IMG/VR virus record: IMGVR_UViG_2563366955_000008
Coordinates: 1-6,033 of that record
Strand: one strand, 5' to 3'
From: a virus
Lineage: Duplodnaviria > Heunggongvirae > Uroviricota > Caudoviricetes
DNA length: 6,033 bases
The position numbers were made by a program, and so were the translations under genes. Below the pieces are notes generated by a model. It searched no databases. It was not told the origin of the DNA and worked only from the letters and a program-made list of their open reading frames with translations. Positions 131 to 726 of the stretch are shown here, one piece after another. How positions within the stretch are numbered: the stretch's first letter is position 1; every line of letters begins with the position of its first letter.

Positions 131-466
131 TTATGGACTTTGTTGTTTTAGCCCATAAGGACATATTTGCAGAGTGCAACGGTTATTAAAGCATTCATTC
201 AATACGTTATCTGTATTTGTAGGGCATTCCTGGCTGTTTTTGATTAAATTCCAGAATGTTTTATTGAATGGTACTACGTTGTAAATGGTTACAGGTAGCA
301 CTTTGTTATTGAGCATGATACCTGTGTGAGTCAGTGTAAATATACTTTCAGGAGGTAAGAAAGCATCCGATTGATACCAGATTATTAATTTTATTTTACT
401 CCATATGACTGAAAAAGATATTCCGCATGATGGCTGGATAACTGTATCAATCACAATCCACTTCAT
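131..466 (-). CDS. Hypothetical protein, 111 aa, no recognisable family; candidate moron gene in an AT-rich island, opposite to late transcription
   Basis: Intact ORF with start ATG at 466-464 preceded by SD AAGGAAA at about 5-nt spacing (minus-strand context aacAAGGAAActaaATG). AT-rich, rare-codon-rich sequence typical of horizontally acquired cargo. No signal peptide or TM segment seen. Confidence 0.5.
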
Positions 467-504
467 TTAGTTTCCTTGTTTATGCCTTGCTGGTGATGTT
501 CTGA

Positions 505-535
505 AAAGTATAAATGATATTTTTGATTGTAAACC
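505..535 (-). promoter_or_regulatory. Candidate sigma70 promoter for the minus-strand ORF 131..466
   Basis: Minus-strand -35 TTTACA (plus 528-533) and -10 TATACT (plus 507-512) with a 15-bp spacer, about 40 nt upstream of the ATG. A possible divergent plus-strand promoter (TTGCTG 487-492, TATAAA 509-514) overlaps it. Hexamer matching only. Confidence 0.25.
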
Positions 536-726
536 ATAGAGCAGAATTATTTTTCTGATGTTGTTTATTGTTTATTTAAATGCAGGGTGGTTTATATCTC
601 GTCTTGTAGTTTATCCATGCATATCTGCTTGATGATGAGGTTTTTATTTAAGGTATGGTTTTGTGTTTTTTCTGTATTACATGTCAGGTATTTTAAAGAA
701 TCATTTTTCAGATGGTGGAAAGAACC

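Follow-up and report, generated by a model that had tools for sequence, protein, structure and literature searches.

An AT-rich cassette in the late region of a lambdoid prophage carries iraL, the gene of a known RssB anti-adaptor

The 111-aa gene on the minus strand near the start of this prophage DNA is iraL, an already published prophage-borne anti-adaptor gene, and it stands here in its usual prophage setting. Within the window, by which we mean the whole stretch of 6033 bp that was analysed, the AT-rich island around the gene is, with high confidence, a prophage moron that was acquired horizontally and whose product would be made in the lysogen, where it would block RssB and stabilise RpoS. 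Both the gene and its function are already known, IraL having been characterised in 2014 (Hryckowian et al., PMC4045071). To the published gene the present analysis adds exactly where the cassette begins and ends, which slot it takes up with respect to stx, STnc100, AsxR and nanS-p, how often it occurs among the current complete Escherichia coli genomes (27%), and which of its RssB-contact residues are conserved. IraL alters the amount of RpoS that a strain holds during growth, and the identification of iraL labels this prophage as RpoS-modulating.

The coding sequence occupies positions 131..466 on the minus strand, with an ATG start and an intact frame, just as the initial annotation had described the 111-aa ORF. 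Translated, it gives a protein with 100% identity to the IraL (c1429) of uropathogenic E. coli CFT073, and the same RefSeq protein, WP_000871291.1, is found in the CFT073 potB prophage. At the nucleotide level 334 of the 336 positions agree with CFT073 (99.4%), and both differences are synonymous. Hryckowian et al. (2014) defined iraL operationally by at least 95% nucleotide identity over the whole CFT073 coding region, together with the presence of a promoter and upstream regulatory region at least 96% identical to that of CFT073; the promoter and 5' UTR of the window are 97.7% identical, and the gene thus lies above both thresholds. Furthermore, the NCBIfam model NF007393 (the IraM model) is matched with 162 bits, against a cut-off of 121, over residues 1-110 of 111, and PDB entry 8TWD, the IraM core, aligns without gaps over all of its 78 residues (E=9e-32, 51/78 identical). 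IraM was the sole match in the PDB search with IraL, which gave no sequence-level match to PmrD, and the Pfam scan of the 111-aa protein returned no family. That the protein belongs to no recognisable family, as stated earlier, is therefore wrong: its sequence is that of the characterised IraL, and it scores above the cut-off of the IraM model; the missing Pfam family may explain that impression. Among the genome matches listed, the gene is annotated as 'anti-adapter protein IraM'. That it might be iraM proper, the orthologue of the K-12 gene, was considered and rejected: the two share 71% of nucleotides and 62% of amino acids (66/107), short of the 95% identity asked for, with no similarity outside the coding sequence. 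Taken over 112 alignment columns, the same 66 identities are the 58.9% given for IraL and IraM by Hryckowian et al. (PMC4045071).

Transcription of iraL has been attributed to sigma-70, and its start was mapped by 5' RACE (PMC4045071). The published mRNA 5' end, ACATCACCAGCAAGGCATAAACAAGGAAAC, is the reverse complement of window 499..470 in 30 of 30 nt, an equivalence of sequence only, and the base that follows the match is T in the window and C in CFT073. Owing to this match we place the iraL start at position 499 on the minus strand, by homology to the CFT073 result, 7 nt downstream of TATACT. The promoter named in the initial annotation was hence the correct one: the sigma-70 promoter at 507..533 (minus strand, from the sequence and the CFT073 alignment) consists of a -35 hexamer TTTACA (533->528), a 15-nt spacer and a -10 hexamer TATACT (512->507), placed exactly as the published start requires, and the two hexamers are identical between the window and CFT073. 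The 15-nt spacer is suboptimal and lies outside the 16-18-nt range of our consensus scan, which for that reason did not list the iraL promoter. The ribosome-binding site, AAGGAAA (471..477, minus strand, read from the sequence as 477->471), stands 4 nt (CTAA) before the ATG.

In the publication, a fragment from -100 to +33 together with iraL, inserted in single copy, was used to complement the CFT073 delta-iraL mutant (PMC4045071, methods). Its equivalent in the window is 467..599 on the minus strand, where 3 of 133 positions differ from CFT073, namely the base after the -35 hexamer, position -1, and one base between the ribosome-binding site and the ATG. The comparison took in five alleles, those of the window and of CFT073, two divergent ones from chromosomes and one from a phage. 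Among them the -10 hexamer is identical and the GG core of the ribosome-binding site invariant, and in two alleles one or both of the final two A's of that site are replaced by G. The -35 hexamer reads TTTATA in phage vB_EcoS-640R1, which may be the same change as in the second iraL copy of JJ1886. The whole 260-bp upstream region travels with iraL, at 97% mean column identity across the alleles.

Divergent promoters, which had also been proposed for this region, were not recovered. None of the sites listed by the consensus scan (16-18-nt spacer) in positions 1-1300 was on the plus strand, and with 2 in all they were fewer than the 3.0 +/- 1.6 of shuffled sequences. Additionally, no minus-strand T-run terminator was found downstream of the iraL stop, the sole hairpin there (75-96) having its T-run on the plus strand. 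The iraL transcript may consequently extend antisense into the STnc100 gene. With regard to the features expected of a moron, the cassette thus has a promoter of its own, equivalent to the one mapped by RACE, and no terminator of its own.

Concerning base composition, sliding 200-bp windows gave a GC content of 0.28-0.35 across about 100-700 and of 0.40-0.60 over the rest of the 6033 bp. We defined the edges of the island by comparison with prophages that do not carry it, and the AT-rich iraL island so delimited, the moron cassette (102..726, no strand), measures 625 bp with 32.8% GC. By comparison, all 625-bp windows to the right of it have a mean GC content of 0.489 (sd 0.027) and a minimum of 0.435. 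The base composition of the island accordingly differs from that of its neighbours (0.328 vs 0.489 +/- 0.027), and the AT-rich island reported from the letters alone stands up to calculation, as does its 245-bp spacer (467-711); the true intergenic gap between iraL and the start codon of DUF1737 (ATG at 727) measures 260 bp, with a GC content of 0.30. The longest ORF of the island is the 111-aa minus-strand frame, whereas the longest ORF of 2000 shuffled islands had 52 +/- 15 codons and reached 111 in 10 of the 2000.

The left flank is the 3' part of a gene for an sRNA of the STnc100 family (1..105, plus strand; Rfam RF02076), with its terminator hairpin at 75-96 and a T-run. This copy, truncated by the 5' boundary of the window, scores 73.8 bits, and the full copy in the near-identical locus of strain 7/2 (L001 8817-9006) scores 132 bits. 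STnc100 is a prophage-associated sRNA family (bioRxiv 10.64898/2026.05.13.724894); opposite its gene, RefSeq annotates a spurious partial 'hypothetical protein'. The right flank is a nanS-p remnant (727..1085, plus strand, from Pfam and the L004 alignment), made up of a DUF1737 N-terminus at 727-915 (Pfam, 62.5 bits) and a C-terminal scrap at 912-1073. An O157:H7 prophage (L004) carries an intact SASA esterase gene of 1851 bp, whose beginning aligns with window 726-946 and whose last part aligns with 931-1085, so that the DUF1737 ORF and the 53-aa ORF that follows are the two ends of one nanS-p gene with an internal deletion of about 1.5 kb. RefSeq labels the remnant a partial pseudogene.

In prophages without iraL, the match on the left stops at window 92-101 and that on the right begins at 726/727. 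The left edge of the island therefore falls just after the STnc100 terminator and the right edge at the ATG of the truncated nanS-p. In the O157:H7 prophage, the same slot holds an unrelated 226-bp spacer with 50% GC. In the Stx2 phage 933W, which is homologous to the window at the nanS-p start and over the holin region, the genes run Q, tRNA Ile-Arg-Arg, stx2AB, STnc100 (+), AsxR (-), nanS-p (L0105), S and R. Both the O157:H7 prophage and 933W consequently share the two flanks and carry other sequence between them. The initial annotation had taken the island for a moron of the Q-to-S interval, and in this it was right: the island is an AT-rich insert with clear limits that lies on the non-late strand and has its own promoter, and some of the related prophages carry it while others lack it. 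Its placing at the stx hotspot needs a correction. The island does lie within the Q-to-S cargo region, but one slot downstream of stx, in the AsxR slot of 933W.

A megablast search with window 100-720 found the island in 1446 of 5426 complete E. coli genomes (27%), in up to 3 copies. This segment, the island with short flanks, has a 100% match in at least 30 records and one of at least 99% in 936 genomes. Four phage records (vB_EcoS-640R1 and its relatives) also carry the island, again located between Q and the holin gene. The neighbours of the island vary: ST131-type strains have an intact nanS-p there, and other neighbours are a DUF6645 gene, TerB and DUF3927 genes on the upstream side of two divergent alleles, and, in CFT073, IS200 with tRNAs after Q. 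We infer that the gene and its 260-bp regulatory region arrived together as one cassette by horizontal transfer, entering the slot that separates the STnc100 terminator from nanS-p, where lambdoid prophages appear to swap it for other cargo. The 111-codon frame is intact in all five alleles compared, and pairwise dN/dS values of 0.25-0.41 among iraL alleles, and of 0.17-0.19 against iraM, indicate that the coding sequence is under purifying selection.

What governs the iraL promoter was approached by scanning its upstream region. One candidate is a PhoP-box-like direct repeat, TGTTTA-N5-TATTTA, at 562..578 on the plus strand, -63 to -79 from the iraL start. It matches 11 of 12 specified positions and is conserved in the five alleles, and the same score was reached in 12 of 300 shuffles, which makes it a weak candidate site, marginally above chance. 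IraL levels are raised in a fur mutant (PMC7157518). The best Fur-box match upstream of iraL, however, was 11/19 and was equalled in 284 of 300 shuffles, so that the scan yielded no Fur box and the rise in the fur mutant is probably indirect. Furthermore, iraL mRNA is higher by 1.6 log2 at 37 C than at 23 C (PMC12890032). As for H-NS, our literature search found no data on iraL. A GC content of 30-34% is typical of H-NS targets, and binding or silencing of iraL by H-NS is plausible from the composition of the island. For the paralogue iraM, silencing by H-NS is reported, according to the title of Battesti et al. (2012).

Some of these observations could be taken to mean that iraL is a silent or decaying passenger here, kept off by its promoter variants and by H-NS silencing and without effect on RpoS. 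The three promoter and 5' UTR SNPs, the 15-nt spacer and the H-NS-like 30-34% GC all lean that way. The adjoining nanS-p, moreover, is an internal-deletion remnant, a sign of decay in the host prophage, so that any benefit of iraL could be historical. A precedent exists in the second iraL copy of JJ1886, which carries a -35 mutation and whose expression was doubted by the authors (PMC4045071). Nevertheless, we regard a silent gene as quite improbable, because the hexamers and the start-site context are intact, because the stretch from 100 to 720 recurs at 100% in at least 30 records and at 99% or more in 936 genomes, and because the coding sequence is under purifying selection.

Regarding iraL as an expressed moron, its action would be as follows. 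In the lysogen, iraL would be expressed by a sigma-70 promoter of its own and read in the direction opposite to the late operon, as transferred from CFT073 by sequence identity. The 111-aa IraL would then bind the response-regulator-like adaptor RssB, a step carried over from CFT073 by identity as well. RssB held by IraL would no longer hand RpoS to the ClpXP protease, RpoS would accumulate even in exponential growth, and the general stress regulon would be raised. [quoted passage not shown] The expectation of expression in the prophage state, with a function of the lysogenic-conversion type, agrees with this stabilisation of RpoS in log phase in CFT073.

With the contact residues taken from the IraM-RssB crystal structure (PMC10844676), we compared the RssB-binding surfaces of IraM and IraL and found 10 of 14 contact residues identical. 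Cluster I, which contacts the RssB receiver domain, is retained in full (5/5), cluster II, which contacts the C-terminal domain, at 3/5 (T13S, L75I), and cluster III, the linker-contact strand, at 2/4 (H63N, I64V). [quoted passage not shown] IraL probably shares the N-terminal beta-barrel core of IraM (PmrD-like, IraM residues 1-78). The C-terminal tail of IraL (residues 81-111; window 131-226, minus strand) contains four cysteines, C81, C92, C97 and C102, at the same positions as in the tail of K-12 IraM, and these might possibly form a metal site. The tail of IraM was removed for crystallisation and described as flexible.

This comparison also bears on the thought that IraL might be a PmrD-like connector acting on another response regulator, or on an additional target, with RpoS stabilisation not its main role. 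The only fold in the PDB resembling the IraM core is that of PmrD (PMC10844676), 4 of the 14 RssB-contact residues differ between IraL and IraM, and the conserved four-cysteine tail has no assigned role. These points are outweighed by the two-way copurification with RssB, the two-hybrid signal and the altered stability of RpoS (PMC4045071), and we consider another main target highly improbable. Anti-phage defence or superinfection exclusion, suggested earlier and in keeping with a moron hotspot, the non-late strand and an own promoter, deserves scarcely any credit, given that the 111-aa protein had no PADLOC model match at E<=0.01 and is completely identical to a protein with another, demonstrated function.

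Returning to iraL as an RssB-blocking moron, a broader reading would join several of the above features into one scheme, which we hold to be rather unlikely as a whole. According to it, iraL would be interchangeable cargo of the slot, and, as it faces the late operon, Q-dependent transcription from pR' would collide with that of iraL on induction. The PhoP-box-like repeat and the four-cysteine tail might add new regulatory inputs to IraL. If the scheme were true, RpoS would be stabilised strictly in the lysogen, and the prophage might profit from this, e.g., by coupling the stress state of the host to induction.

Several further observations were made in the rest of the window. After the nanS-p remnant and ahead of the holin gene, the late operon contains a hairpin with a 12-bp stem and a T-run (1156-1184, plus strand), which resembles a terminator and would have to be read through by Q-modified polymerase. 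After the P21-type holin comes a 297-aa ORF (1440-2333, plus strand), the first ~100 residues of which match DUF1327/YdfR and the remaining ~200 no family; the corresponding gene in strain 7/2 (L001) is annotated as a truncated YdfR pseudogene, and the ORF may be a fusion or a longer YdfR variant. Behind Rz/Rz1, where lambda carries bor, a small protein that combines a lipoprotein-like signal (LAVGC) with a TonB C-terminal domain is encoded at 4169-4495 on the plus strand, a candidate for a second cargo gene of the window. Relative to strain 7/2 (L001), the window is 99.8% identical up to 5341 and divergent thereafter (5342-6033), and the Nu1-type small terminase gene at 5447-5992 belongs to a different mosaic module.

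Among the known systems, iraL of CFT073 resembles the gene of the window in its identical protein, near-identical coding and regulatory sequence, and same hexamers and start-site sequence, and its neighbours are the same as well, with STnc100 upstream and a truncated DUF1737/nanS-p downstream, followed by the holin gene. CFT073 differs in the three regulatory SNPs and in its prophage mosaic, where Q is followed by IS200 and tRNA Ile-Arg-Arg and the endolysin by other genes. IraM of K-12 (YcgW/ElbA) is of the same family as IraL, aligned without gaps over the 107 residues, with five cysteines at the same positions. Both genes are AT-rich (34% GC) and adjoin prophage DNA, while IraL has 4 additional C-terminal residues. 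The similarity between iraM and iraL is confined to the coding sequence (window 147-468, 71%) and stops at its ends. Their regulatory regions are therefore unrelated, in agreement with the different conditions of their induction: iraM is induced via PhoP/PhoQ at low Mg2+, whereas iraL is expressed in log phase. Moreover, IraM contacts both domains of RssB, and IraL is reported to contact the N-terminal one only. The K-12 segment with iraM(-) and ycgX(-) (L002 2681-4108) is colinear with that carrying iraL(-) and ydfO(-) in CFT073 (L003 23466-28043); ycgX and ydfO both encode DUF1398 proteins, about 50% identical, and the lysis cassette between is missing in K-12. The K-12 iraM locus, which lies just outside e14, looks like a decayed lambdoid late region.

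RssC of Salmonella has been placed with IraL and IraM in one anti-adaptor family; rssC is found in Salmonella only, and its identity to iraL is about 49% by the authors' ClustalW alignment (PMC4045071). PmrD (PDB 4HN7) is, like IraL, a small protein that binds a response regulator, but its target is PmrA and not RssB. Finally, the morons of lambdoid late regions (stx, AsxR, bor, lom) share with iraL the features of small cargo of deviant composition, with its own promoter, expressed from the prophage and present or absent between conserved late-region landmarks, although iraL, unlike them, has no recognisable terminator of its own. In contrast to iraL, stx occupies the slot one step upstream, from the tRNAs to STnc100, on the late strand and under pR' control, whereas AsxR of 933W lies, as iraL does, on the minus strand of the slot between STnc100 and nanS-p.
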